48,575 bases of DNA from the IMG/VR virus record IMGVR_UViG_2582581022_000007, positions 1 through 48,575 of that record. One strand, written 5' to 3'. Within the stretch, counting starts at the first letter, position 1; each line of letters opens with the position of its first letter. The position numbers and the translations under genes are program-made. The notes below the pieces were generated by a model. That model saw only the letters and a list, made by a program, of their open reading frames with translations, was not told the origin of the DNA and did no database searches. Positions 23,476-48,575 of this stretch are shown one piece after another. This stretch comes from a virus (Duplodnaviria > Heunggongvirae > Uroviricota > Caudoviricetes).

Positions 23476-24165
23476 TCAGAACTTACCAGCCATGCTGTTG
23501 ATGTACTGCGTATGAGTCTGGATATCGCGCAGGCATTTACTGGCGCCGACAATATAGCTCATCATGGCCGCGAACTCTGCTACAGCACCTTCAACATCAT
23601 GCCCGTCGGAATCCAGTTGGCGCAGCAGGTTCATCATCAAAGAGTGCTCTCTCAAACCAAGAACACCTTCAGGTGAATGGATGTGTTCACGGTAGTTTGG
23701 CTTGAGTGGGGCGCTGTATTCCTGTTTCTCTTCCGTCTTCATCGCTTCCAGAATGGCGGGCATGAAGCTGGCTACAACCTTTTGCGCTTTGTCTGCCGGT
23801 GATAATTCTTCACGAACGTATCGACCAGTGCGGCGGATTTGCGGAAGAACGTCGCCAGTTACCCATTTGCGGAAACGATAGGGGATAGTACCAGGAGTTA
23901 CCGCATCGCGGCAGCGCAGGATCAGAGTGTAGAGGCCGGATTCAGAGATGATGAGGGTATTAGGGTTCCCTCGTTTTCCGTCGGTTAAAGCGACGGTATT
24001 CTTTTCGTCGTCATCCAATTTAAGCAGAGCATCACGGTTGTTTGATATACCAAGAGCATTACATACATCTAACGCAATAAACCATGGCTCGCCGTCGATG
24101 ATGATTGCACGAATATCGGCTTGCGATTCGAAAGAAAAAACTGAAGTATTTTTTTGAGTTGTCAT
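23476..24165 (-). CDS. phage antirepressor (Bro-N/AntA-like N-terminal domain)
   Basis: N-terminal FSFESQADIRAIIIDGEPWFIALDVCNALGI resembles Bro-N/AntA; start set at ATG 24165 with GGTGA RBS. Confidence 0.7.
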   Translation of the reverse strand: MTTQKNTSVFSFESQADIRAIIIDGEPWFIALDVCNALGISNNRDALLKLDDDEKNTVALTDGKRGNPNTLIISESGLYTLILRCRDAVTPGTIPYRFRKWVTGDVLPQIRRTGRYVREELSPADKAQKVVASFMPAILEAMKTEEKQEYSAPLKPNYREHIHSPEGVLGLREHSLMMNLLRQLDSDGHDVEGAVAEFAAMMSYIVGASKCLRDIQTHTQYINSMAGKF

Positions 24166-24323
24166 AGTGATCACCTTTTAGTCTGGTTAATCACCACCGG
24201 AGGTTCCAATCTCGGAGGTGGTGAACTGTGCAGGGTTGGAACTACCGGCTAAAAGGACCCGGCGCACCTTTCGGTGCCCCCACACAGCCCACCATAATGC
24301 GAATGTGGCCGTGCTTAACGCAT

Positions 24324-24936: not shown

Positions 24937-27648
24937 ATGACGGTCTCAACCGAAGTTGACCACAATGACTACACGGGTAACGGGGTCACGACATCATTCC
25001 CATATACCTTCCGAATTTTTCATAATCATGATCTGGTGGTGCAGGTTGTTGACCTGAGCGAAAACATCACTGAATTAACACTGGACACAGATTACACGGT
25101 GACAGGTGCTGGCGGATATACTGGCGGGAATGTTGTTTTATCGTCGCCTCTTGCCAATGGTTATCAGATTTCGATATCCAGAGAGTTACCGGTTACCCAG
25201 GAGACCGATCTCAGAAATCAGGGTAAGTTTTTCGCAGAAGTGCATGAGGATGCTTTTGATAAGTTAACCATGCTGATACAGCAGGCAATTAGTTGGCTGC
25301 GCCTTTCTTTACGTAAGCCGTCTTTTATTGCAAATTATTATGATGCCCTGGGTAACTACATACGAAATCTTCGTGACCCGTCACGACCACAGGATGCAGC
25401 TACAAAAAATTACGTTGACGGGGTTGCTGAAGGTAACATTTCTTATGCAGATTCTCTATTTAAAAGAACCTTAAGAGTTCCTGAGGATTATGTTGACCAG
25501 ATACCATCAAATGCTGATAGATCAAATAAAATACTTGCTTTTGATTCTGGAGGTAAACCGATTGCTGTTTTACCTGAATCTGGTTCTGCTTCAGATGTTT
25601 TAATTGAGCTGGCAAATAACGGTGATAAAAAAATTGGTAGCTCATATGGTGGCACAGTTTATAGCGACTACCAACAATCAATTTTTGTCAAAAAAGGAGA
25701 TTTTTATTCCGGTTTAAGCATATCGGGAAAAGATGATGCCTACCTTTTTTCTGATGGGCTATGGTATGTATGGACTGGCGCATTACCGCACACGATCTTG
25801 TCGGGTGAAACTCCTGATGTAGAAACAACTAAATGGGCTTGTGTAGGCCTGCTTAATGGGCATGAAATTTGTTCTGCTCTTAACTATAGCGATTCATGGG
25901 GCATCCATGATGATTCACCATTACTTCGCAAAGCCATCATTAGTTTAATAAGAACTGGATATGCAAGATTTTGCATTAACGCTGGCGTTACTATTAACCT
26001 TTTTACTGATTGCGAAATTCCGTTCTATCTGGATGGGAGGGCTGTGTCTTTCCGTTTTCATGGAGAAACAGCAATTGGTTCTTTAGGAAGAGTGTCAGAA
26101 CTAGTAGTAGCTCTAGGTATTAGAGGTCTTGTATTCGAGGCTATTCAAGTAGAGATTGACCATTTCACTATGCGTCAGTGGGTTGGTAATGCTGGGCAGT
26201 CTATTGTCAGTTATACATCTGATACAGTTACGCTATCTTTTGACCCATGGCCTGACGGACGCACCCCAGTGATATGGCCTTGGGGAACTACTGCTGGTGA
26301 TGGCACTGTTTACACAAGCTTTTTAGAATTTAAAACTGACAGTGGTGGTTATTACGCATCTGGCGTAACTCGCAACTTAGATGGAACCGTAACACTAACC
26401 AATGTCCATCCTATTGGGCCAACTAATACAATCGCTTCCGCAACGATTGTTAACTTTTTCCAGAGTCATGCTAATAACTATCCAGAAGGAAGTTTCGCAG
26501 ATACGGCAGCAGTAATCACCCTGGGGGTATCAGAAAACCCATTTATTCATAACTTATGGGTGCTTGCTGTCTATCGAGGCTTTGCTCACGGTCTTGGCTC
26601 TGGAGCAGGTCCGGGAGTATTGATGGGAAATATCGGCGTATGGTCTGATATTGTCGTAGACAACGCTTTATACTTTATAGCTAATACTGATGTGAATCCA
26701 TCATCTGGGCAAGGCATCAACAATGGGATGTTCAATAACATTCAGTTATCAAACGTCCGTCGTGGAATAAGAGCACGTAGAGCCTACAATCTTGCATTCA
26801 CAAACCTTCAGCATATTGCTAGCGGTAATGTTTCATTTGATGCTGTTACTATACTGGCAAATGAAATAGAAGGTGTTACTTTAAATGGATCTCAGTTTGG
26901 TTGGACATCTATCGACTGGGTTATAGATACATGGGTTCCTAAACTACTCAAGTGTACCCGATTACGTCGCTCCTCTATTACTGGATGCGTGTTCGGTCGA
27001 CATGATGTAACCATCACAAGAGGTGCCGTAATTGACGTTAAGGACGGCACAATACTAGGTTTAACACTAACTGGTAATTCTATGGTTACAATCGACGAAA
27101 ACTCAGATTCAAGTAACTATGGATGGATTGAGTGTAATGAGCTTAAATCATCAGTTATTTCTGATAACTCCCCTAGTTCAGGTAGTGAGCTTGGTGGAAG
27201 CATTAATCTCTCGCTGAGAACTGCTTCTAATGACTTAACAAAATTTGATAACACATATTTTGGTCAACCAGTCAGAACAAACGCAGAAGCTGGTGTGTTT
27301 GATAATGAACTAGCATCCGGTGGAAATGTTTTTGACAGCACAACTGAATACAGAGACGCAGGTAAAATTTTAATCTTTGTTGATGTAAACAATGCTGCTG
27401 TATGGCCTGATAATTCAAGGAATATCATACCATTCGGCGGAGGATTAACAGGAGGTAAAACACTTGGATTGCCTACCCCAGCAGTACTCCTGTCATTGAA
27501 AAGAAGAAGTGTTCTGGTTGATTTGTCATCTGTGGTTTTTGGTAGCCAGACAATTGGAGTGTATAACGGGGCAACTTTGGTATCAACAATATCAACTCCT
27601 GGTGTTTATGAGTTTCTCCTCGTAGGGGCAAAATACATAAAATTATAA
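24937..27648 (+). CDS. tailspike / tail fiber with conserved podovirus N-terminal anchor and AT-rich variable receptor-binding region
   Basis: N-terminus MTVSTEVDHNDYTGNGVTTSFPYTF is the phage tail-fibre head-binding motif as I recall it; 903 aa; composition drops to AT-rich after ~residue 170; terminator follows. Confidence 0.8.
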   Translation: MTVSTEVDHNDYTGNGVTTSFPYTFRIFHNHDLVVQVVDLSENITELTLDTDYTVTGAGGYTGGNVVLSSPLANGYQISISRELPVTQETDLRNQGKFFAEVHEDAFDKLTMLIQQAISWLRLSLRKPSFIANYYDALGNYIRNLRDPSRPQDAATKNYVDGVAEGNISYADSLFKRTLRVPEDYVDQIPSNADRSNKILAFDSGGKPIAVLPESGSASDVLIELANNGDKKIGSSYGGTVYSDYQQSIFVKKGDFYSGLSISGKDDAYLFSDGLWYVWTGALPHTILSGETPDVETTKWACVGLLNGHEICSALNYSDSWGIHDDSPLLRKAIISLIRTGYARFCINAGVTINLFTDCEIPFYLDGRAVSFRFHGETAIGSLGRVSELVVALGIRGLVFEAIQVEIDHFTMRQWVGNAGQSIVSYTSDTVTLSFDPWPDGRTPVIWPWGTTAGDGTVYTSFLEFKTDSGGYYASGVTRNLDGTVTLTNVHPIGPTNTIASATIVNFFQSHANNYPEGSFADTAAVITLGVSENPFIHNLWVLAVYRGFAHGLGSGAGPGVLMGNIGVWSDIVVDNALYFIANTDVNPSSGQGINNGMFNNIQLSNVRRGIRARRAYNLAFTNLQHIASGNVSFDAVTILANEIEGVTLNGSQFGWTSIDWVIDTWVPKLLKCTRLRRSSITGCVFGRHDVTITRGAVIDVKDGTILGLTLTGNSMVTIDENSDSSNYGWIECNELKSSVISDNSPSSGSELGGSINLSLRTASNDLTKFDNTYFGQPVRTNAEAGVFDNELASGGNVFDSTTEYRDAGKILIFVDVNNAAVWPDNSRNIIPFGGGLTGGKTLGLPTPAVLLSLKRRSVLVDLSSVVFGSQTIGVYNGATLVSTISTPGVYEFLLVGAKYIKL

Positions 27649-29449: not shown

Positions 29450-29622
29450 CATGGCATTTTTCATGGTACTGATTTCCGGCGACGGTATATAAAACGGTAT
29501 TGGAAATTTTGTTTCTTTAAAAGTTGTTGTCAGTCAATTACTTATGTTGTCCGTAAATAATTGAGTGGGAATGATTTAACGTCTGGCAACAGCCTGCACG
29601 TAAAAGCAGTAAAGTACCTCTA

Positions 29623-29880: not shown

Positions 29881-31071
29881 ATGTTGACTGACACCAGGCT
29901 GCGTCACCTTAAGCCGAAGGAGAAACTCTATAAAGTTAATGACCGTGATGGTCTGTATGTTGCGGTCACTCCGGCTGGAACTATTTCATTTCGTTATAAC
30001 TATTCAATAAACGGAAGACAGGAGACCGTTACTTTTGGCCGCTATGGTGTTGGAGGGATCACGCTTGCAGAAGCGCGTGAACGGCTCAATGAAGCTAAAA
30101 AAATGGTTGCCAGTGGAAGATCGCCAGCGAGGGAAAAAGCTAGAGATAAAGCTCGTATCAAAGATGCGGAGACTTTTGGTGCATGGGCTGAGAAATGGTT
30201 ACGCGGTTATCAAATGGCTGAATCGACGCGTGATATGCGGCGTTCGGTATATCAAAGGGAGTTGAAGTCAAAATTTGCGCAGCAGAAATTGACCGAGATT
30301 ACACATGAAGACTTACGCGCATTAACCGATAACATTGTCGAGAGAGGGGCACCGGCGACAGCTGTGCACGCCAGAGAGATTGTATTGCAAGTCTATCGCT
30401 GGGCTATTGAGCGCGGTCAGAAGGTTGAGAATCCCGCTGATCTGGTACGGCCTGCAAGCATAGCGAAATTTGAGCCTCGTGACAGGGCATTGACGCCAGT
30501 TGAAATTGGTCTGATGTATCGGTACATGGAACGGGTAGGAACGACGCCATCAATCAGAGCAGCGGTTAAACTTTTGCTGTTAACGATGGTACGTAAAAGT
30601 GAGCTTACTAACGCAACCTGGAACGAGATCAATTTTAGTGAGGCATTATGGACGATACCAAAGGAGAGGATGAAACGACGTAATCCACATTTGGTTTTTC
30701 TTTCCAGACAGGCAATGGATATTATGATTGCTCTCAAAACCTTTGCCGGTAGCTCTGATTTTATCCTTCCTTCGCGGTACGATTCCGATGCGCCAATGAG
30801 TAGCGCTACTTTAAACCGGGTTTTGACACTGACGTATCGTCTGGCTCAGAAAGAAGGGGACTTGTTACCTAAGTTTGGTCCCCATGACTTACGGCGTACT
30901 GCCAGCACCTTGCTACATGAGGCCGGGTACAATACTGACTGGATTGAGAAGTGCCTTGCCCATGAACAAAAGGGGGTACGAGCTGTTTATAACAAGGCTG
31001 AATATCGTGAGCAGAGGGCCGAGATGCTACAAGATTGGGCGAATATGATTGATGAATGGACTAGTAAGTAG
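29881..31071 (+). CDS. int: tyrosine recombinase/integrase, P4-type
   Basis: N-terminal arm-binding-like region (RLRHLKPKEKLYKVNDRDGLYVAV); C-terminal catalytic signature HDLRRTASTLLHEAGY...CLAHEQKGVRAVYNKAEY. Confidence 0.9.
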   Translation: MLTDTRLRHLKPKEKLYKVNDRDGLYVAVTPAGTISFRYNYSINGRQETVTFGRYGVGGITLAEARERLNEAKKMVASGRSPAREKARDKARIKDAETFGAWAEKWLRGYQMAESTRDMRRSVYQRELKSKFAQQKLTEITHEDLRALTDNIVERGAPATAVHAREIVLQVYRWAIERGQKVENPADLVRPASIAKFEPRDRALTPVEIGLMYRYMERVGTTPSIRAAVKLLLLTMVRKSELTNATWNEINFSEALWTIPKERMKRRNPHLVFLSRQAMDIMIALKTFAGSSDFILPSRYDSDAPMSSATLNRVLTLTYRLAQKEGDLLPKFGPHDLRRTASTLLHEAGYNTDWIEKCLAHEQKGVRAVYNKAEYREQRAEMLQDWANMIDEWTSK

Positions 31072-39514: not shown

Positions 39515-40747
39515 GTGAGCCAAGAAGATGATGATAAGTATCCAGCTAGCGCCGTATCCTCATGGAGCGGCTTCGTTTATCAAGGGAAAATTGCATTATA
39601 TCACTCCCTCAAGATTATTCACGATGGCGATCTAGACTTTGAGCTTCAGCTAGACAGTAGTGACGACTTCGCTATTTATAAAAATGGAAAACTACACACA
39701 GCCCATCAAGTCAAAGCGAAGATAAGTAAATATCGAAGTGGTTACACCAAGGCGCTGGAACAGTCTACTTTAATCGAACACGACAAAATCCAAGGGACAA
39801 CGCGTTACTTCCATGTATCTGTTCCTCTAAATAATACGGACGATCATAGAGGCGCTAGCGGAGAAATAGTAAAATTCTATCGCTATGGGGATAATTATTA
39901 TTGTGGTTTGGGTGAAATTGAAGGGCTTACCAAAGAACTAATAAAAAAAATATGTAATAAGCAGCACATCATTGTCAGTGATAACCTTATAAATTTTAAC
40001 TATTGTTTACTTTCTGAAAAAATCAGCACCAAGGCAATATACAATCATAAATTAAATCAGGTTGGCGGAATTTCAGAAAACAGAGCAGCATATGAGGGTC
40101 GTATCAAGGCCAGAAATATTCTAGAAGACCTGCTAACCGAAAACCCCTATCAGAATAGGGACTACTATGCAGTTGCATTAAAGGCCAGGCTTCAAACTCA
40201 TCTGGAAGAGAGGTTGGATCAGGCGCTTCCAACAATGAGTGACACTACTTACGAGAGAGCTAGATGTCTGTGTGAGCACATTCGCGAAACTCATATCAAT
40301 GAATTGAAAGCCCTATGCCAGATGATGAAGCCCTCCGAGCGATTTCAAGACGTTCAGACGAACGACATCAGGCGATACACCAAGCTTATCCAGGCTATTT
40401 CGGTGGAGCCTATATTCAACCACCTCCCACACTACCTTGACAGCGAAAATCGATTTTACGTACCTACCGCTCTTGATGTAGATGAAAGCGAAGAGTGTGA
40501 GTTTGACATGACCCGTGAAATGAAAAACAACGGGGATCTGCTGAGACTACTTTTTGAGTATAACCATCTAATCGCCAGCAAAGCAGAAGCCTCATTCACC
40601 TTTAATACAAAATTTACAAACTCAGATGACTTCGACAACAAGCAGACCACTGAAAAGCTCGAAAGCAACATCACCAAGTCGCTATGCATTAGCGTGATAA
40701 CAAAAGACGATGCGGAGGAACGACTGAATGATAAAGCAACTCATTGA
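39515..40747 (+). CDS. candidate defence effector, LmuA-like (N-terminal PD-(D/E)xK-like nuclease motifs)
   Basis: GTG start with AAAGGAG RBS; GFVYQGKIALYHS...DLDFELQLDSSDDF...HQVKAK suggests D...D...(E/Q)xK nuclease; first gene of coupled operon. Confidence 0.45.
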   Translation: MSQEDDDKYPASAVSSWSGFVYQGKIALYHSLKIIHDGDLDFELQLDSSDDFAIYKNGKLHTAHQVKAKISKYRSGYTKALEQSTLIEHDKIQGTTRYFHVSVPLNNTDDHRGASGEIVKFYRYGDNYYCGLGEIEGLTKELIKKICNKQHIIVSDNLINFNYCLLSEKISTKAIYNHKLNQVGGISENRAAYEGRIKARNILEDLLTENPYQNRDYYAVALKARLQTHLEERLDQALPTMSDTTYERARCLCEHIRETHINELKALCQMMKPSERFQDVQTNDIRRYTKLIQAISVEPIFNHLPHYLDSENRFYVPTALDVDESEECEFDMTREMKNNGDLLRLLFEYNHLIASKAEASFTFNTKFTNSDDFDNKQTTEKLESNITKSLCISVITKDDAEERLNDKATH

Positions 40748-41393
40748 TGAAGCACTTGTTGCACATGGCTTTGTTAGTAAACGCGACTTGGACAACACAA
40801 GCTTTTATATTCGCGAGTCTGGATCTGCTATCAGGTTTGCAGTTCTATATAATCTTGATGACCTTCCTGACCCAGCCGAATTGAATAATAGAATCAATCA
40901 TCTTGCTCCTAGTGAATTTCTCAGAAACCCAAGCTTTAAGAAAAACTGCGACTTGATTTGTATTTATCGTCTTGATGTTCTGGCCAATTTCAAAGATCAC
41001 GAAGAAGAGATTTTCGCAATTGAAGAAGATCCGCACTTCTATAAAAAGTATGTTCTCTATTACAGTATCGCGGAAGAAAGTGCACTCACTAATTTCACCT
41101 ACGACAAACTGGTATCTGTTATTGCTGACAAAAAAGAATTTCTTGAATACAAAGAAAATCCTCTTAACGCCACACAATACAGCTTTGCGGCGAAGACCTT
41201 TATCAAGCTTCCTTTTTTAGAGTTACCTAACCATCAAGAAAATCTTGTGTCCTTGAGGTTACAGGCAGCAGAGGCCGTTGCACAAGCCAGCCTGAACGAT
41301 ACGTATTTGACTATCCAGAAAGTCACAGATAAAAACGCCGACGAAATTATCAAGGAAATGATTAAAAATGAACTGGCAAATATCCAAGATTGA
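40728..41393 (+). CDS. small middle-gene protein of the operon (LmuC-like by position)
   Basis: 221 aa; overlaps upstream gene by 20 nt and downstream gene by 26 nt; GGAGGA RBS. Confidence 0.45.
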   Translation: MIKQLIDEALVAHGFVSKRDLDNTSFYIRESGSAIRFAVLYNLDDLPDPAELNNRINHLAPSEFLRNPSFKKNCDLICIYRLDVLANFKDHEEEIFAIEEDPHFYKKYVLYYSIAEESALTNFTYDKLVSVIADKKEFLEYKENPLNATQYSFAAKTFIKLPFLELPNHQENLVSLRLQAAEAVAQASLNDTYLTIQKVTDKNADEIIKEMIKNELANIQD

Positions 41394-43701
41394 AGTCTCT
41401 AGCTTCAAAGCTTTCAAGCATATCTATTTGGATCTTGACAAGTCGTCTTTGCTAACTCTGGACGGCCCTAACGGTTATGGTAAAACAAGCATATTCGACG
41501 CAATCGAACTATTGCTTACCGGCCAGATCAGTCGAATACAAAATCTATTCAAGACATTACTAACCAAGAACAAGAGAGACTACGCGGACAATCTTTTCTG
41601 GAATAGTCGCTCAGGAGAGAACGATCTCTGCATTAAGATTGAATTTACTAATGATGGTCGCAAACTTGTCTTAGCTAGACATTGCCAAGCTGCAATATTC
41701 AAAAAACCAGTAAACAATCGTGCAGACAAATACGAAAATTTCAAGCTTTATGAGCTGCCAGAATTCGAATCGTCTGAATTCACTAAGATCAATCTGCGCG
41801 ATAATAATTTCCTTGATGAAATTTTCGGAAAGAATTTCAGGGAAAACTTCTCCTTTCTTAACTATTTGGAGCAAGGGCAAAACCGGCTGTTACACACTCG
41901 GGTAGACGAACGGAAGGATAAACTAGGAAACCTATTTAATATCAGTGATATCGAAGCCGAGATTGAAAACTGCAACACTGTATACAGCAAACTCACAAGG
42001 TACATCAATAATCCTGAACGCACGGCAAAAGCTGCATCTCTTATTGAAGAAATAGCCATCCTAAAGGACACATTGCAGGCAGTGGCTGGGAACATTAAGT
42101 ACAAAAAACTCTCGACGACTGATGTCCAACCGGGGTGGGACAAGGAGATAATGTTCTCTACGTATTCGTCAGTGGACCATGCAGCCTACCAGGAATCAGT
42201 TCGTAAGATTATTGCCCTTCTACCACTCAAAGCCACGATAAAAACTAGGGTCCATAACGAGAGAATTGATGCCTACATCGGTCGTAATGAGGAATCTCTG
42301 AGAAGTCTGGCGCAGTTTGGTAAAGACCTGGGCAAGCTTGATGTGCTTGACGCTATCAAGAAAGGGATTGATGAGTTAGAACGTTCAGCAAGTATCATTA
42401 AACGTGGTGCTACGGTGATCAAGCTCGAAGAAGCTCGTTCATTACAAGGTTGGGCGGGTGGGCGTCTTGAGTGGTTTGAGTTACAAATTAATTCTCGAAA
42501 CAGCTTACAAGTAAAAAGTAGCGCCAACACGAACGTTGTAGCCGAATTGGAACGTCTAAAAAGGCAGTTACTTAGGGAACATAAAAAGTCTTATCCCGAC
42601 GAGCAGTTGTGCCCTCTCTGTGGTGCTGACTGGGAAGATCACAAATTAATGGCAGATGCTATTGAAGCAAGAACTAAGCAGATCTCTGAATCATTAGGAC
42701 AGGACGGTAAGGACTTAGTTAACCTTATCGCTGCTATGGACGCAGAGCTGAAACTTATCGACTCCTTTATACAAGACAGCCTGAAACTCCTTACGCCTAC
42801 ATTTGAATCGAACCTTCATGTAGGGCTGACCAGAATTAAGCTTCGGCTCCCGGCAATAACCCAAGTACTGGAAAAGCTGCAAAGCGAAAATATTCAATTT
42901 ACTGATTCATTCACGGAAATTGATGACTTAGTAGATGAGCGACTTGAAAAGCTCAAAGAGATTCTAAGAAATAAAAAACAGGTTGAGGCTGATGCCTTAA
43001 CGCTGCCGGAGGACTGGCGAGAAACCATAAATAGCTCTTTTAAAGATCTGCAGGACTTCTACATAGTCACGGCTGAAGACCTAAAGGGTAAAGAGCATTA
43101 CATATCGATTAAAGCTAACGAGGCTCAAAGTTCTAGGCTCCAAACTTGTATTAAAGATCTTAATCTTATCGAAAAAGAAACCATGGCAGCTCAAAAAGCA
43201 CAAGGTAAAATCGAAAAGCTCCGCAACACTTTGAAAAAGACCGAGCAGAACTATACTGACCAAACAATTTCGGCTATTGAGTTCATATTCCACATTTATA
43301 GTGGTCGGCTGATCCAAAACTACCAGCGTGGCCTGGGCCTGTTTATTGAGAGCCGCGAAGGTACGCAACTGAGGTTCCTGACTGCTGAGAAGTCTGAACA
43401 CGACGCAGTCATGTCCATGAGTTCAGGTCAGGTGTCTGCGCTCAGCCTTGCTTTCTTCCTCGCGCTCAACAAAGTCTATGCACGGGTTCCTCTCATATTG
43501 ATTGACGACCCGTCGCAATCACTGGATGAAGTAAACGTTGCTTCGTTGACCGATCTACTCCGTTGCGAACTCAAACATTGCCAGTTGGTTGTCTCATCGC
43601 ACGAGGACGATATCTCGGCCTATATGCGCTACCGGTTCGACAGAGCCGGTTTGACAACAAGTTCGCTCAACATGCAGCTTTTGGCGAAAGAAGCTTCGTA
43701 A
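41368..43701 (+). CDS. SMC/Rad50-like ABC ATPase with mid-protein CxxC (zinc-hook-like); LmuB-like
   Basis: Walker A GPNGYGKTS (res ~33-41), CPLCG near res ~415 in long charged helix-rich middle, C-terminal SGQVSALSLAF signature, LILIDDP Walker B, SSHED. Confidence 0.75.
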   Translation: MNWQISKIEVSSFKAFKHIYLDLDKSSLLTLDGPNGYGKTSIFDAIELLLTGQISRIQNLFKTLLTKNKRDYADNLFWNSRSGENDLCIKIEFTNDGRKLVLARHCQAAIFKKPVNNRADKYENFKLYELPEFESSEFTKINLRDNNFLDEIFGKNFRENFSFLNYLEQGQNRLLHTRVDERKDKLGNLFNISDIEAEIENCNTVYSKLTRYINNPERTAKAASLIEEIAILKDTLQAVAGNIKYKKLSTTDVQPGWDKEIMFSTYSSVDHAAYQESVRKIIALLPLKATIKTRVHNERIDAYIGRNEESLRSLAQFGKDLGKLDVLDAIKKGIDELERSASIIKRGATVIKLEEARSLQGWAGGRLEWFELQINSRNSLQVKSSANTNVVAELERLKRQLLREHKKSYPDEQLCPLCGADWEDHKLMADAIEARTKQISESLGQDGKDLVNLIAAMDAELKLIDSFIQDSLKLLTPTFESNLHVGLTRIKLRLPAITQVLEKLQSENIQFTDSFTEIDDLVDERLEKLKEILRNKKQVEADALTLPEDWRETINSSFKDLQDFYIVTAEDLKGKEHYISIKANEAQSSRLQTCIKDLNLIEKETMAAQKAQGKIEKLRNTLKKTEQNYTDQTISAIEFIFHIYSGRLIQNYQRGLGLFIESREGTQLRFLTAEKSEHDAVMSMSSGQVSALSLAFFLALNKVYARVPLILIDDPSQSLDEVNVASLTDLLRCELKHCQLVVSSHEDDISAYMRYRFDRAGLTTSSLNMQLLAKEAS

Positions 43702-43856
43702 AAGCCACCTTGGCCACCTATTAGAGCGGGTGGCTAAATTTAGTGTTTCACTACAAATAGCATAAAAGGATGCAAAAATTCGGCGAATTTATTCCACGTG
43801 TTTTTTTAAATTCAATGTATGTTAAAATTGTGTCTATTTTATATCAGGATTGTCAA

Positions 43857-44744
43857 ATGAACTCAATTGTTACAGCTAAGGCATTGTCAGCAAGGAAAAA
43901 GTTTGCAGGCCGTCAATGGTTCTACGATTTTAGAGAACTAACTCAGCGTATTGATGAACAAAATGCCCAAAAAATTGCAGATAGCCTTTCCGTTCGATAT
44001 TCAAAACTAACAAAATTTTGGGATAAGGAAAAGAATTCAGAATGGATGTGCAGAATTTATTTATCGGCAAAAATGGTGATGAACGCCACAATACAGATTA
44101 ACTCCATGGAGTTTGCAAAAGAACGCAATATCCGTATCACAACTCCTTATTTAACATATTATTCCCTCCTTTCACTTCTTCGAGGAATCGTCTACACATT
44201 ACCAGAAGTGGAATGGGAGAATGGAAAGCTTATTGAGATATCGCATCACAAAGCTATAAATTTGGCATTCGACCATCTTTCGGCATTTAATAAGGACTTA
44301 TCTGAAGAGTTTAAAAATATCACGCTCACAGCCAAGGCATATCGTGAATTAATTTCGTATCGCTCCCCAACGTCGGGTGACTCTATAATTGAATCAATAA
44401 GCATCGAAGCGATTGCCACATTGCTAGCTGAGGTGGCACAATTTAACTCTGAAATTTTGGAGTCATCCATTATTAAGAAAGCAGATGGCGCTTCGTTTGA
44501 GTTTCTTAGTAAGTATATAAAAGAGTTATCTGGCATTACTATCGAAGGTATCAATTTCTTCGATCAAGAAGATGCTTATAGGTTAAACTATCTTCGCCGA
44601 AAATACCCTCTACCTCCAAATGTTCTTCATGTCATGACGGAAGGACATGTAGAGGATTTTTTTGGGGCATGGCTACCTAGTGAAGAAATTGAAGGTGCTT
44701 TTGACCCAGATGAAAATTGGGGAGTTATTTTTGATATCCCATAG
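43857..44744 (+). CDS. hypothetical protein (orphan gene between two defence loci)
   Basis: 295 aa from ATG 43857 (AGGA RBS); follows hairpin after previous operon; no motifs I can assign. Confidence 0.4.
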   Translation: MNSIVTAKALSARKKFAGRQWFYDFRELTQRIDEQNAQKIADSLSVRYSKLTKFWDKEKNSEWMCRIYLSAKMVMNATIQINSMEFAKERNIRITTPYLTYYSLLSLLRGIVYTLPEVEWENGKLIEISHHKAINLAFDHLSAFNKDLSEEFKNITLTAKAYRELISYRSPTSGDSIIESISIEAIATLLAEVAQFNSEILESSIIKKADGASFEFLSKYIKELSGITIEGINFFDQEDAYRLNYLRRKYPLPPNVLHVMTEGHVEDFFGAWLPSEEIEGAFDPDENWGVIFDIP

Positions 44745-45064
44745 TTAATTAATTGCGAAGATTATTTTTTTTGTTAATCCAGAACTAAATTGGAATGAAA
44801 AAATATGGGGTTGGGTAGTAAATAGAGCCAATTCCCCATATCCTTCATGGCAAGAATGTTTAAGCGGTATATAACACGTTTATGGACATTCATGAGTTAT
44901 GATTTTTATAAATTAGCATTTCTAAAATCAACTTGGATATTGTAAACCTAGGTCAGTTGACCAAATCTATTACGACACTATACTATACATTTGTCTTTCG
45001 TCTAAATGCCGCTAGGTCAATATCAACGGTATTGACCTTTGCTTCGAATGAATCTTTATAAATA

Positions 45065-45916
45065 CTATGGGTAAATTAAATTGTGCTTAGTATATAAGAA
45101 CTGGACTACACCTTGGGAGTTTAAAATTCCATGAATAAAGATTGAGAACCAGTTGTTTGGTGTGCTGTACGACTGATCATATCTATTTAATGCATCATTC
45201 AAATATCTCGAAAAGTCAGCAATGGTTGGAGTATTGGCTAATGGTAACGTTTGAATTTTTAAGCTTGGGTTTTGTGTCGTTGTATCCCATTCACCTTCTA
45301 GCCAATTAATAATTCCTGATGGGAGAACAACTTTCTCCGTGTGGTATTTTATGCTGTCTATTTCTAAGTGCTGTGGTAAAACATAAGCTATTTCAATTTT
45401 AGCTTTTGGAAATTGAGGGTCTTGAGTAATGTTACACGACAAAAGCCTCTGATTAAGAAAAACGTCATAATAAGGATGTAGTATCCTTTTATTTCCATCC
45501 GTTAAATTCGTTTTTCGTTTGCTGTTGCAATCACAAGCTGGAACTAAATTTTTTGAATACACAGAAAAGCAAGGGTAGTCATCTTTAGGAAACAGGTGAT
45601 CAAGGGTTCCTGTTTTTAATGAACCGCACATTGGGCAAACGTTTGGTGAAGATGCTCTTAAATCATCAATGAACTTTAAGTCAGTTGGTGGTGAAGCGTA
45701 GTGCTTCTTCAATGCTATTGATAAATCATTGGTAATGTTGACGTTCGCAACTGATAGTGCGTTACCATTATTAGCGTCATAGTCTTGGTATCCATTTAAA
45801 ATGATCTGTAACTCATTGTGTAAATGCGGATAACTTGTTCTATGAAGCCTGTCTCTTTGAGACGTTGTCGTTATTTTCTCAATATCATTTACCGCAGGTA
45901 AAGGAAGCTTTTTCAC
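45065..45916 (-). CDS. HNH endonuclease (PtuB-like)
   Basis: CPMCGS...TLDHLFPK...PACDCNSKR HNH/zinc-finger motifs; GTG start 2 nt after upstream ATPase stop with GGAGGA RBS. Confidence 0.75.
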   Translation of the reverse strand: MKKLPLPAVNDIEKITTTSQRDRLHRTSYPHLHNELQIILNGYQDYDANNGNALSVANVNITNDLSIALKKHYASPPTDLKFIDDLRASSPNVCPMCGSLKTGTLDHLFPKDDYPCFSVYSKNLVPACDCNSKRKTNLTDGNKRILHPYYDVFLNQRLLSCNITQDPQFPKAKIEIAYVLPQHLEIDSIKYHTEKVVLPSGIINWLEGEWDTTTQNPSLKIQTLPLANTPTIADFSRYLNDALNRYDQSYSTPNNWFSIFIHGILNSQGVVQFLYTKHNLIYP

Positions 45917-45918
45917 AA

Positions 45919-47385
45919 TTAATCCTCCATCATGCGTTTTAATCGCATTAAGGCTGATAGCGAAATTTCATTGCCTAGCTGTTCTTCTACGTCAGAAAAG
46001 CTCTTGCCTTTCACTCTATCGTAGAGTTTTTCTGAAAGTCTTATTTCAGTATCTTCCTGAAAGATAAACTGTGAAATAGAATCTACAGTTGCTCCAAATG
46101 TCGGTAACCTCGGTTTATCAGTTACGAGCCTGTGATCTGATATTGAGAGAACAGCTACCTGTTCATTTGATACTTCACGGACAAAATACGCCGAATGAGT
46201 TGCTATAAGTGCCTGTGAGCCTGTTTTTTCTAATAGGAAGTCTAGTAGTCCTATAAAATCAACAATCATGTTAGGATGCATGTGCGTTTCAGGTTCATCC
46301 ATCAATACAAACGTACCGTTTTCAATGAACAAGCAACTCAGTAAAGCAACCTTAAAGAAGGTTAACTGCCCGCTACTAAGCGGGTAGAGTCCGTCGCCTC
46401 TTTTTAATTTAGGGTCTAGGTTGTGCTCAATACTAGCCCAACGCATCAAAGAATCTTGCTCTCCGTTTCCTTGTAAAAAACTCCATAGATTGATTGTTCG
46501 TTCATTTTTTAACTGTAAAAAGATATTTCTAGGGTCTAATCCTGCTTGGTAAAGTGAATCCAAAAAAAGGTTTTTTCGAGTATTTTCACCAATCTCATCT
46601 GCACTTCTCGCTAATTGTACGAGGCAATCACCAATATTATGTGTCCCTTTTCGAGTCAGATTTAACCGTCTATAGTAAAGCTTCTGTGTCGCTCTTCTTT
46701 CAGGGGGAAACGTGTTTGAGGTTTCACCAGGTGTCGCTATTGCGATAATACGATTGATTAGAGGTCGTTTACCGTCATCGTCAACCAGTGACAACCCTTT
46801 ATCTTTATATTGCAGTGCCCCTCGGCAAAATGCTTTAAGCGACTCGCTTTTACCAACACCATTTTTACCTATCAACACAAAAATTCGCTTCGGTATGATA
46901 CTTTGGTGGTTGTATTTTAATGACAGTTGATGAAGCTCTTCAAAACCATCTAACTGGAACTTAAGTTCTAACGAGTTGGATATAGCTACATCACTTTTTA
47001 GCTCTTCTCCAATAATAATACTGTTAGCATTGTGATAAGCGAAGAACGGCTCGGAGTTACGCATGAAACCAAGTTTAAATACTTCAGTATCAATGGCTTT
47101 TCTTACCCATTTTTCATCAGTGTCTTTATATTGAGAAAGATCATTTACTGTACGTAAGAATAGTTCGGCTCCTTCGCGGCCAAACCCGTCGTAAAGGTCT
47201 CGGTAGCTTTGCATGTCAGGTAACAAAGTAAAAAATGGAGGAAGGTCCTCTGAATAAACAACCTCTTTATCAGCCTTTTTTAGGTACTCCCATAGCGTTT
47301 CTTTTTTTTCATAAAAGAGAAGCTCTTCCTCTTTGTTTTCTATGTTATCTGGAGCCATAAAGCCAATTAACATTGAGCCTTCCAT
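45919..47385 (-). CDS. ABC-type/AAA_21-like ATPase (PtuA-like) with ~170-aa N-terminal extension
   Basis: Walker A IGKNGVGKS at res ~173-180, signature LSSGQLTFFKVALL, Walker B FVLMDEPETHMHP, H-loop IATHSAYF. Confidence 0.75.
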   Translation of the reverse strand: MEGSMLIGFMAPDNIENKEEELLFYEKKETLWEYLKKADKEVVYSEDLPPFFTLLPDMQSYRDLYDGFGREGAELFLRTVNDLSQYKDTDEKWVRKAIDTEVFKLGFMRNSEPFFAYHNANSIIIGEELKSDVAISNSLELKFQLDGFEELHQLSLKYNHQSIIPKRIFVLIGKNGVGKSESLKAFCRGALQYKDKGLSLVDDDGKRPLINRIIAIATPGETSNTFPPERRATQKLYYRRLNLTRKGTHNIGDCLVQLARSADEIGENTRKNLFLDSLYQAGLDPRNIFLQLKNERTINLWSFLQGNGEQDSLMRWASIEHNLDPKLKRGDGLYPLSSGQLTFFKVALLSCLFIENGTFVLMDEPETHMHPNMIVDFIGLLDFLLEKTGSQALIATHSAYFVREVSNEQVAVLSISDHRLVTDKPRLPTFGATVDSISQFIFQEDTEIRLSEKLYDRVKGKSFSDVEEQLGNEISLSALMRLKRMMED

Positions 47386-47665: not shown

Positions 47666-48237
47666 TTAAGGGCGTTTCATTCTAATTCCATTAATTGGGA
47701 TGGTAATCCTCCCATTTTTAACCGCAATTAAACGTAGAAGTCTAGCGGCCATTAATGGTGGTTTTCCTCCATTGGCTTTGTGTGGCCGTTCATAATTGGA
47801 AAAACTAAAACCATTTAGTGGCATAGTCTTACACTTCTTCAAGTGTATCAAATAAATGTTTGCTGACCTAGCTGTACATGATCGTTTTGTTATGTAGTTC
47901 GATGTAGGCATTTTGCTGTGGTTTGCCAGGCTGAGTGTACTCAATACGGATCCCATGCATTTTCGACCATTTTGTAAACCCTTGGCTGATTAACTCAGGC
48001 CCATTGTCAAAGCGTATCGCTAGCAGTTTTGTTCGCCATTCGAGCAATTGATTTAGTGTTCTTATCACTTGCAGTGCCAGCAATGAGAACTCTGCTTTAA
48101 TCGGCAAACCTCGTTTGAAGTCGTCGATGACGTTGAAGAACTGATAGCTGCGTCCATCCGCTAGCAGGTCAGCGCTATGTAAAGTGTATAGAGATAAGTT
48201 GGAGGTACAAGGTGGATAGAATTACATCGGAACCAGC
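47666..48237 (-). pseudogene. IS3-family transposase (DDE integrase core) remnant, N-terminally truncated and frameshifted
   Basis: Two overlapping frames: ...FFNVIDDFKRGLPIKAEF...RFDNGPELISQ...QPGKPQQNAYIE and ...NYERPHKANGGKPPLMAARL; in-frame stop at 48238, no start. Confidence 0.65.
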
Positions 48238-48481
48238 GATGACTTGTGGCAGAGAAACAAGAACTTCGTCAGGACATGAAAGAATCCTCAGCTTGGGCCA
48301 ACGTCGAACTAAACACCGATGAGACGCAAAAAATCAAAAAATTTACGCATGGTATAGATGATGGTATCGATAAACCTTTTCTTTATAACAAGCTGTTATT
48401 TCTATATATTTTTTTCTCGTTGATATTCGAGTGGGAATGATTTGACCCTGCACTATGAATGAACAAAACCCTCTGTTACTA

Positions 48482-48574
48482 CCTGTCTCTTGATCAGATC
48501 TCCTGATCAAGAGACTTCATCACCAGGTAACCCTCAACCATATCCTGAAGTCTGAACCAGCCATCCCACATGAC
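48482..48574 (-). mobile_element. terminus of an IS50-like (IS4-family) insertion sequence with 3' end of its transposase gene; element continues past window end
   Basis: CTGTCTCTTGATCAGATCT at 48482-48500 equals the Tn5/IS50 inside-end repeat as I recall it (two GATC sites); minus-strand frame ends ..GWFRLQDMVEGYLVMKSLDQEI* with stop inside the repeat. Confidence 0.55.
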
Positions 48575-48575
48575 T

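Follow-up and report, generated by a model that had tools for sequence, protein, structure and literature searches.

The window, by which we mean the whole 48,575-nucleotide stretch of DNA analysed here, runs at its right edge into a sequence resembling the end of a Tn5-type transposable element and stops there. This locus raises the question of which element enters at the edge, why the DNA breaks off within it, and what led to its insertion at this particular site.

Identity of the element at the window edge

The 19-mer CTGTCTCTTGATCAGATCT occurs a single time in the window, at 48483-48501 on the plus strand, while 100 shuffles gave 0 matches with up to 3 mismatches. The first-pass annotation had recognised this sequence but placed it at 48482-48500, one base short. 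The two GATC (Dam) sites it had reported within the 19-mer are located at 48492-48495 and 48497-48500, and a third GATC (48505-48508) lies in the 13-nt inverted partial copy that was also noticed at first reading, the arms of which (48485-48497 and 48503-48515) are 100% complementary and separated by a 5-nt spacer. The minus-strand frame said to stop inside the 19-mer was recovered as well. It runs from 48574 to 48494 and translates as VMWDGWFRLQDMVEGYLVMKSLDQEI plus stop (26 codons and the stop codon, with GWFRLQDMVEGYLVMKSLDQEI as C-terminus), its TGA being the complement of 48494-48496, or positions 12-14 of the 19-mer. The 19-mer is a 19-bp terminal inverted repeat adjoining this stop codon. 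Terminal inverted repeats of the IS10 and IS50 subgroups begin with 5'-CT (PMC2266710), and so does the end in the window, which starts CTGTCTC; reference ISEc13 copies carry CTGTCTCTT at both ends.

When the end of the window was compared by BLAST with plasmids and with complete E. coli genomes, it matched genes annotated as 'IS4-like element ISEc13 family transposase'. One such annotated copy, H74, is identical over 93/93 nucleotides to 48483-48575, in which the transposase gene lies on the minus strand, and copies in E2348/69, both chromosomal and on pMAR7, are also 100% identical. The E2348/69 reference copy extends from CTGTCTCTTGATCAGATCT to ATTTGTGTATAAGAGACAG and measures 1550 bp (L001 3019-4568), which is the length listed for ISEc13, an IS4-family element of 1550 bp (PMC6650469), and thus supports this identity. 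The tail encoded in the window (48494-48574) is identical to that of its 457-aa transposase WP_000244358.1 (L001:3030-4403, minus strand). This protein scored 514 bits against the NCBIfam model NF033590 'IS4 family transposase' (cutoff 160), exceeded the Pfam cutoffs for Tnp_DNA_bind and DDE_Tnp_1 while falling slightly under that for Dimer_Tnp_Tn5 (24.1 vs 26.7 bits), aligned over residues 6-453 to solved Tn5 transposase chains in the PDB (E = 6e-84), and keeps the aspartate motifs EDTT and VCDREADI together with the YREK-bearing RWxIEExHKAWK. The 93 nt visible here make up the terminal 6% of the element. In another contig with the same junction (L003), 46 further nucleotides can be read, all of them ISEc13-identical (139/139). 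The 93-mer is present in 2469 of 5426 complete E. coli genomes, at up to 32 places per genome, and many of the E. coli ISEc13 copies are frameshifted or truncated. Taken together, we identify 48483-48575 as the ISEc13 end that adjoins the transposase stop codon, with a probability of about 93%. The feature is a known, catalogued insertion sequence of the IS50/Tn5 subgroup at a contig break. The earlier statements that an IS4-family element begins here and runs beyond the window, and that the protein tail resembles the C-terminus of Tn5 transposase, to which it is homologous, were borne out.

The 19-mer had also been taken for the inside end of IS50, and correctly so: in an Aeromonas media contig (L092), a 476-aa protein whose stop codon lies within it aligns end to end with the PDB Tn5 transposase (1016 bits, about 14 differences). 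Sharing this end might therefore suggest a genuine IS50 or Tn5, either natural or derived from a laboratory transposon or vector. However, the sequence from 48502 to 48575 rules against such an origin, which we regard as having next to no chance of being true, because the 93 nt are 100% ISEc13 and both interior and tail are unlike those of IS50. Directly after the 19-mer, the window and ISEc13 read TCCTGATCAAGAGAC while IS50-type copies read TGATCCCCTGCGCC; the tail ends in GWFRLQDMVEGYLVMKSLDQEI rather than the GWEALQSKLDGFLAAKDLMAQGIKI of IS50-type proteins, with few of 22 residues matching past a shared GW; and the full transposases (457 vs 476 aa) are 39% identical. What the window has in common with IS50 proper is the inside end CTGTCTCTTGATCAGATCT, whereas neither a Tn5-identical transposase nor an IS50 interior was found. 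The assignment of the element to IS50 is accordingly withdrawn in favour of ISEc13.

The 19-mer also fails as an identifier of IS50, as it ends many different Tn5-like elements. In a scan of one genome per species, it was found exactly in at least 120 contigs, from genera including Parashewanella, Serratia, Rahnella, Xenorhabdus, Photorhabdus, Aeromonas, Shewanella, Herbaspirillum, Paraburkholderia and Bradyrhizobium. Behind it lie varied interiors and protein tails (GIKI, SLDQEI, SVDLEI, SLEQEI and others, each followed by the stop) in Gamma-, Beta- and Alphaproteobacteria, indicating that the 19-mer is a clade-wide end sequence. For annotation practice, the Tn5 inside-end 19-mer alone is unfit for calling IS50 or Tn5.

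The two ends of ISEc13 are unlike each other, one being rich in Dam sites and the other carrying TTATACACA, the DnaA-box sequence of IS50. This other end, CTGTCTCTTATACACAAAT, matches 17/19 positions of the IS50 outside end CTGACTCTTATACACAAGT and likewise 17/19 of the engineered mosaic end CTGTCTCTTATACACATCT (IS50 and mosaic end sequences from PMC3347997). Judged from these sequences, the two-ended asymmetry of IS50 is common to transposases that have diverged to 39% identity.

Insertion site and contig break

The first-pass annotation took the insertion sequence to mark the edge of a genomic island. The island itself, about 18.9 kb long, has the 3' end of guaA as its integration site and lies between two copies of GAGTGGGAATGATTT. 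The right att repeat (48429-48443, plus strand; 15 nt) copies the last codons and stop of guaA and equals the K-12 guaA 3' end; the left one (29563-29577, plus strand) is an exact second copy, with a tyrosine integrase gene (29881-31071, plus strand; Phage_integrase and Arm-DNA-bind_3 domains) 300 nt downstream of it. The edge is therefore the guaA att repeat and that is where the boundary should be drawn; ISEc13 lies 42 nt outside it in conserved E. coli core DNA. The IS3-family remnant that had been cited as further evidence of an IS-rich junction is real, being a degraded transposase with a broken frame at 47700-48158 on the minus strand (rve integrase-core domain in the minus-strand ORF 47868-48107; about 71% nucleotide identity to IS3/ISAca1-like transposase genes on Acinetobacter plasmids), but it belongs to the interior of the island and has no connection with the insertion of ISEc13.

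Some further properties of the surroundings were noted. That the nearest DNA relatives of the IS3 remnant are on Acinetobacter plasmids fits the low G+C content (36-39%) at that end of the island. The island encodes TrbL/NikA-like transfer genes, and the sequence immediately to the left of both att repeats is similar, suggesting two related elements in tandem. Candidate defence cargo occupies 39515-47385. Its plus-strand genes encode CTD1 (410 aa), MComp1 (221 aa) and SMC/AAA_23 ATPase (777 aa) proteins, and its minus-strand genes an AAA_21/AAA_15 ATPase of 488 aa and a 283-aa partner. The cargo found at this position in related islands of other E. coli differs, being either a HEPN protein or a different AAA ATPase. 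The left part of the window, 1-22541 (to about 29500), is prophage-like DNA with portal, terminase, capsid and tail genes; it shows 76-92% identity to prophages in other E. coli, among them E2348/69, and is followed by a Bro-N protein (23476-24174) and a tail-spike-like protein of 903 aa (24937-27648).

Comparison with the empty site showed where the element went in. The empty site AAAACCCTCTGTTACTACAGAGGGTTTTTT is found in K-12 and in strains 203740 and M37H, and the insertion sequence is located exactly before its AGAGGGTTTTTT. In the layout of this site, GAGTGGGAATGA, the end of guaA, is followed by TTTGACCCTGCACTATGAATGAACAAAACCCTCTGTTACTAC and then AGAGGGTTTTTTATC, with the insertion between the latter two. 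The hairpin AAAACCCTCT-GTTACTAC-AGAGGGTTTT is the terminator common to the convergent guaA and yfgI genes, so that the insertion sequence sits in its loop, and the left half, AAAACCCTCT-GTTACTAC, remains at 48465-48482 on the plus strand as the target. The insertion splits the shared guaA/yfgI terminator and could alter read-through there.

To extend the window, six contigs were read in a look-up for the neighbouring 488-aa ATPase (45919-47385), which gave five places, from JGI, NCBI (three) and Logan. All five other assemblies of the locus end on the IS side, one of them (L004) 3 nt before the element and the rest 28 to 139 nt inside it. Endings of this kind, at or close to the junction, are the signature of an assembly break caused by a repeat. 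Short-read assembly tends to break off in multicopy repeats, and this is why the window stops in the element; the truncation is not biological. The exact junction between flank and insertion sequence was seen in 0 of 5,426 complete E. coli genomes and 0 of 72,556 plasmids, and a contig scan of species-representative genomes gave no match to it. A 136-nt query had matched 5,420 genomes, but these matches were rejected as junctions since they came from the conserved guaA/yfgI core flank; the IS part alone matched 2469.

Lying at a contig end, the junction could in principle be an artefact, either an assembly chimera or a carry-over of adapter, given that the Nextera mosaic end is derived from Tn5 and that adapter-like TCGTCGGCAGCGTC stands beside mosaic-end-like sequence in some public metagenome contigs. 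Such an origin is highly improbable. At least 4 independent assemblies (JGI, two NCBI, Logan) contain this flank-IS junction and thereby rule out a chimera, and the end is of the inside type, not a mosaic end, with 74 nt of ISEc13 coding sequence following it. As a separate observation on public metagenome contigs, in L139, L143, L148 and L161 the stem of the Nextera read-1 adapter, (T)CGTCGGCAGCGTC, stands before the mosaic-end-like sequence, and these are probably untrimmed adapters and not transposon ends.

The assembly break leaves another reading to be weighed, namely that what separates guaA and yfgI is a remnant, in the form of an ISEc13 end that was truncated or that an IS-mediated rearrangement left behind, and not a complete active element. 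The far end was present in no assembly found, and degraded copies are frequent, with a split gene in O157:H7 and frameshifts or internal stops in Nissle-type and other strains. In addition, the pMAR7 copy and others lack matching duplications, suggesting recombination between copies. However, no visible base, over 139 nt in L003, departs from intact copies, the frame is open, and several independent assemblies break here, as expected when other near-identical copies exist in the genome. One form of remnant, the 35-bp relic treated in the following section, is excluded because the window reads GAGACTT and then coding sequence, instead of GAGACAG and then flank. We therefore consider a remnant unlikely and treat the window as holding the end of an ISEc13 copy interrupted by assembly.

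Subterminal hairpin and palindromic relics

The 13-nt inverted copy forms a subterminal hairpin at 48485-48515, with a perfect 13-bp stem (48485-48497 paired with 48503-48515) and a 5-nt loop, as given by both inverted-repeat and folding results. As single-stranded DNA it folds with -13.5 kcal/mol (z = -6.0), and it is the sole helix in the centroid structure of the transposase-sense RNA. Its outer arm lies within the terminal repeat, while its inner arm encodes S-L-D-Q and contains the third GATC. Among 16 distinct ends of the clade with transposase tails of the form SLDQ(E/K)I, positions 20-33 are 98% conserved. The six third codon positions within the 33 nt have conservation values of 1.00, 1.00, 1.00, 1.00, 1.00 and 0.94, compared with a mean of 0.72 in the next 30 codons. 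This conservation of third positions indicates selection on the nucleic acid itself and not on the protein alone, showing that the 13-bp hairpin is under selection at the nucleotide level. The hairpin is a feature particular to the ISEc13 clade. A subterminal inverted repeat, CACAAATCCCC...GGGGATTTGTG, is also found at the other ISEc13 end. No paper containing the hairpin sequence was found in our literature search.

The hairpin most likely acts at the level of nucleic acid. It may structure the transposase mRNA at its 3' end, block transcription that enters from the gene whose terminator was split by the insertion, or serve as a second binding site for transposase. Its candidacy as an intrinsic terminator was dropped, as no terminator-like site was scored and the stem is not followed by a T-run. 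The element habitually interrupts terminators, and our best guess is that the hairpins at both ends buffer it against read-in transcription from the genes on either side and terminate or stabilise its transposase mRNA; alternatively, the hairpin may provide an extra transposase-binding site. The transposition cycle itself would, by homology with IS50/Tn5, be of the cut-and-paste type. A DDE/YREK transposase would bind two different 19-bp ends, one inside-like and one outside- or mosaic-like, form a paired-end complex and excise the element via hairpin intermediates, and the excised element would then be joined to its target with a short duplication. By analogy with IS50, Dam methylation of the GATC sites at the end probably affects how well the transposase binds; for IS50/Tn5, methylation of the end GATC sites lowers transposase binding according to Yin et al. 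(1988), as cited in PMC3347997.

The same end sequence also occurs in a reduced form. A perfect stand-alone palindrome of 35 bp, CTGTCTCTTGATCAG-ATCTC-CTGATCAAGAGACAG (as a whole, CTGTCTCTTGATCAGATCTCCTGATCAAGAGACAG), consists of two outward-facing end sequences. It is located between lldD and trmL in E. coli M15 (L008 1501-1535), where K-12 has two hairpin repeats, and occurs in Rahnella, Serratia and other genomes. Further stand-alone palindromes were found in L017, L057, L067, L090, L093, L099, L111, L116, L130 and L211, while L146 (1471-1520) and L165 (1603-1652) contain a 50-bp counterpart made of the other type of end. In 16 distinct palindromes, direct duplications never exceeded 4 bp, and several of the palindromes lie within longer perfect ones (L090, L146); both properties argue against ordinary transposition or simple internal deletion. 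In particular, we rejected an origin of the 35-mers from a resident copy that lost the DNA between its two AAGAGAC repeats, as such a simple deletion would keep the direct duplication; some of the palindromes also have inverted flanks. Template switching at the subterminal hairpin is a candidate origin. Two longer sequences, L214 302-512 (211 bp) and L181 538-936 (399 bp), are non-autonomous derivatives with one outside-type and one inside-type end; unlike the palindromes, the 211-bp derivative has a 9-bp duplication, located within a CCCTCTCC...GGAGAGGG hairpin.

Target choice of the ISEc13 clade and comparison with known systems

Insertion in a terminator loop is paralleled by the flanks of other copies. 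In 27 of 33 distinct left flanks of the ISEc13 clade, a run of pyrimidines rich in C precedes the IS end by 6-17 nt, compared with 6.4% of random positions and 18 of 86 flanks in other clades ending in this 19-mer (Fisher p = 1e-9). Position -13 was C throughout (25/25) in a set of flanks analysed earlier. The right flanks, at outside-type ends, are G-rich from +7 to +14 and then T-rich, which corresponds to the 3' half of a terminator. As separately noted, flanks with inverted CCCTCT / AGAGGG half-sites include window positions 48465-48482 and those in L001, L009, L082, L232, L257, L258, L046/L028 and L214.

Original targets were reconstructed for those copies with both flanks available, and are written here with the duplicated segment in brackets. 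Duplications of 10 bp were found between araE and kduD (CCCT[GCCATGCGAC]AGGG), inside eutA (CCCT[GTTTATCGAC]AGGGG) and in Pantoea (CCCC[GTGCTTACGG]AGAGG), and duplications of 9 bp in Scandinavium, from two contig ends (CTCT[CCCGCGGGG]AGAGGG), and around the 211-bp derivative (CTCT[CCCTCCGGG]AGAGGG). The duplication is 8 bp near ybaY (CTCT[CCGGGCGG]AGAGGG) and in a metagenome contig, L232 (CCCC[CCTGATAG]GGGGAG), and 7 bp inside a fimbrial usher gene (CTCT[GTTATGT]GGGGG). In every reconstructed target the duplicated segment equals the spacer between the inverted half-sites, the lengths being 7, 8, 8, 9, 9, 10, 10 and 10 bp. The half-sites belong to terminators, to CCCTCTCC...GGAGAGGG repeats or, rarely, to the same motif inside genes (eutA and the fimbrial usher gene); the repeat name 'Box C' presumably applies here.

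The copy in the window fits this rule, with CCCTCT[GTTACTAC]AGAGGG as its target and a predicted duplication of 8 bp. Its left junction is directly visible, and the right one is predicted to read ...AAGAGACAG-GTTACTAC-AGAGGGTTTTTT, the sequence on the IS side also being written TGTGTATAAGAGACAG. We tentatively propose, as a model that could well turn out otherwise, that the ISEc13 clade inserts at the apex of G+C-rich hairpins, with strand transfer beside the half-sites CYCT^ ... ^AGRGG, so that the duplication would equal the spacer (7-10 bp) instead of a fixed 9. The hairpins at the element's ends would then replace the terminator that is split, and could seed the 35-bp and 50-bp palindromes. 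Hairpin-tip targeting, spacer-length duplications and palindromic relics concern the clade rather than the window. Given experimental confirmation, they would add modestly but genuinely to the understanding of how Tn5-type transposases, themselves tools in wide use, capture their targets. Our literature search returned no description of ISEc13 target choice, nor of insertion into hairpins for the IS50 subgroup.

Among known systems, ISEc13, with about 30 copies in EPEC E2348/69, has the same terminal repeat, transposase tail and subterminal hairpin as the window, and the visible sequence is without differences; the guaA/yfgI terminator site is occupied in 0/5,426 complete E. coli genomes. IS50/Tn5 shares the identical 19-bp end at the transposase stop, including the stop codon within it and its two Dam sites. 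The other ISEc13 end is close to the outside end (17/19) with TTATACACA kept, and the transposases are homologous over their full length with conserved catalytic motifs. By contrast, the 13-nt inverted copy after the 19-mer is present in ISEc13 and absent from IS50, the C-rich flank motif of the ISEc13 clade is not seen at IS50-type copies, and duplications of 7-10 bp in ISEc13-clade copies differ from the fixed 9-bp target duplication of Tn5.

A parallel in target choice is IS231A, whose preferred target is reported to be GGG-N5-CCC with duplications of 10-12 bp (Hallet et al. 1994, cited in PMC2266710). It resembles ISEc13 in belonging to the IS4 family, in using inverted G/C-rich half-sites as target and in its variable duplication length, whereas its subgroup, its half-site sequence and its Bacillus hosts are different. 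Target-arm specificity and variable duplication lengths are also known in other IS4-family subgroups (PMC2266710), and IS1397, ISKpn1, IS621 and ISRm22 are known to enter extragenic palindromes (PMC1525189). IS1397 and ISKpn1 of the IS3 family and ISRm22 of the IS4 family are like ISEc13 in that they insert at the tip or in the loop of palindromes repeated in extragenic DNA, where the sites are safe (PMC1525189; PMC2266710), but they do so with transposases of other families or subgroups and at other palindromes (REP/BIME, RIME).
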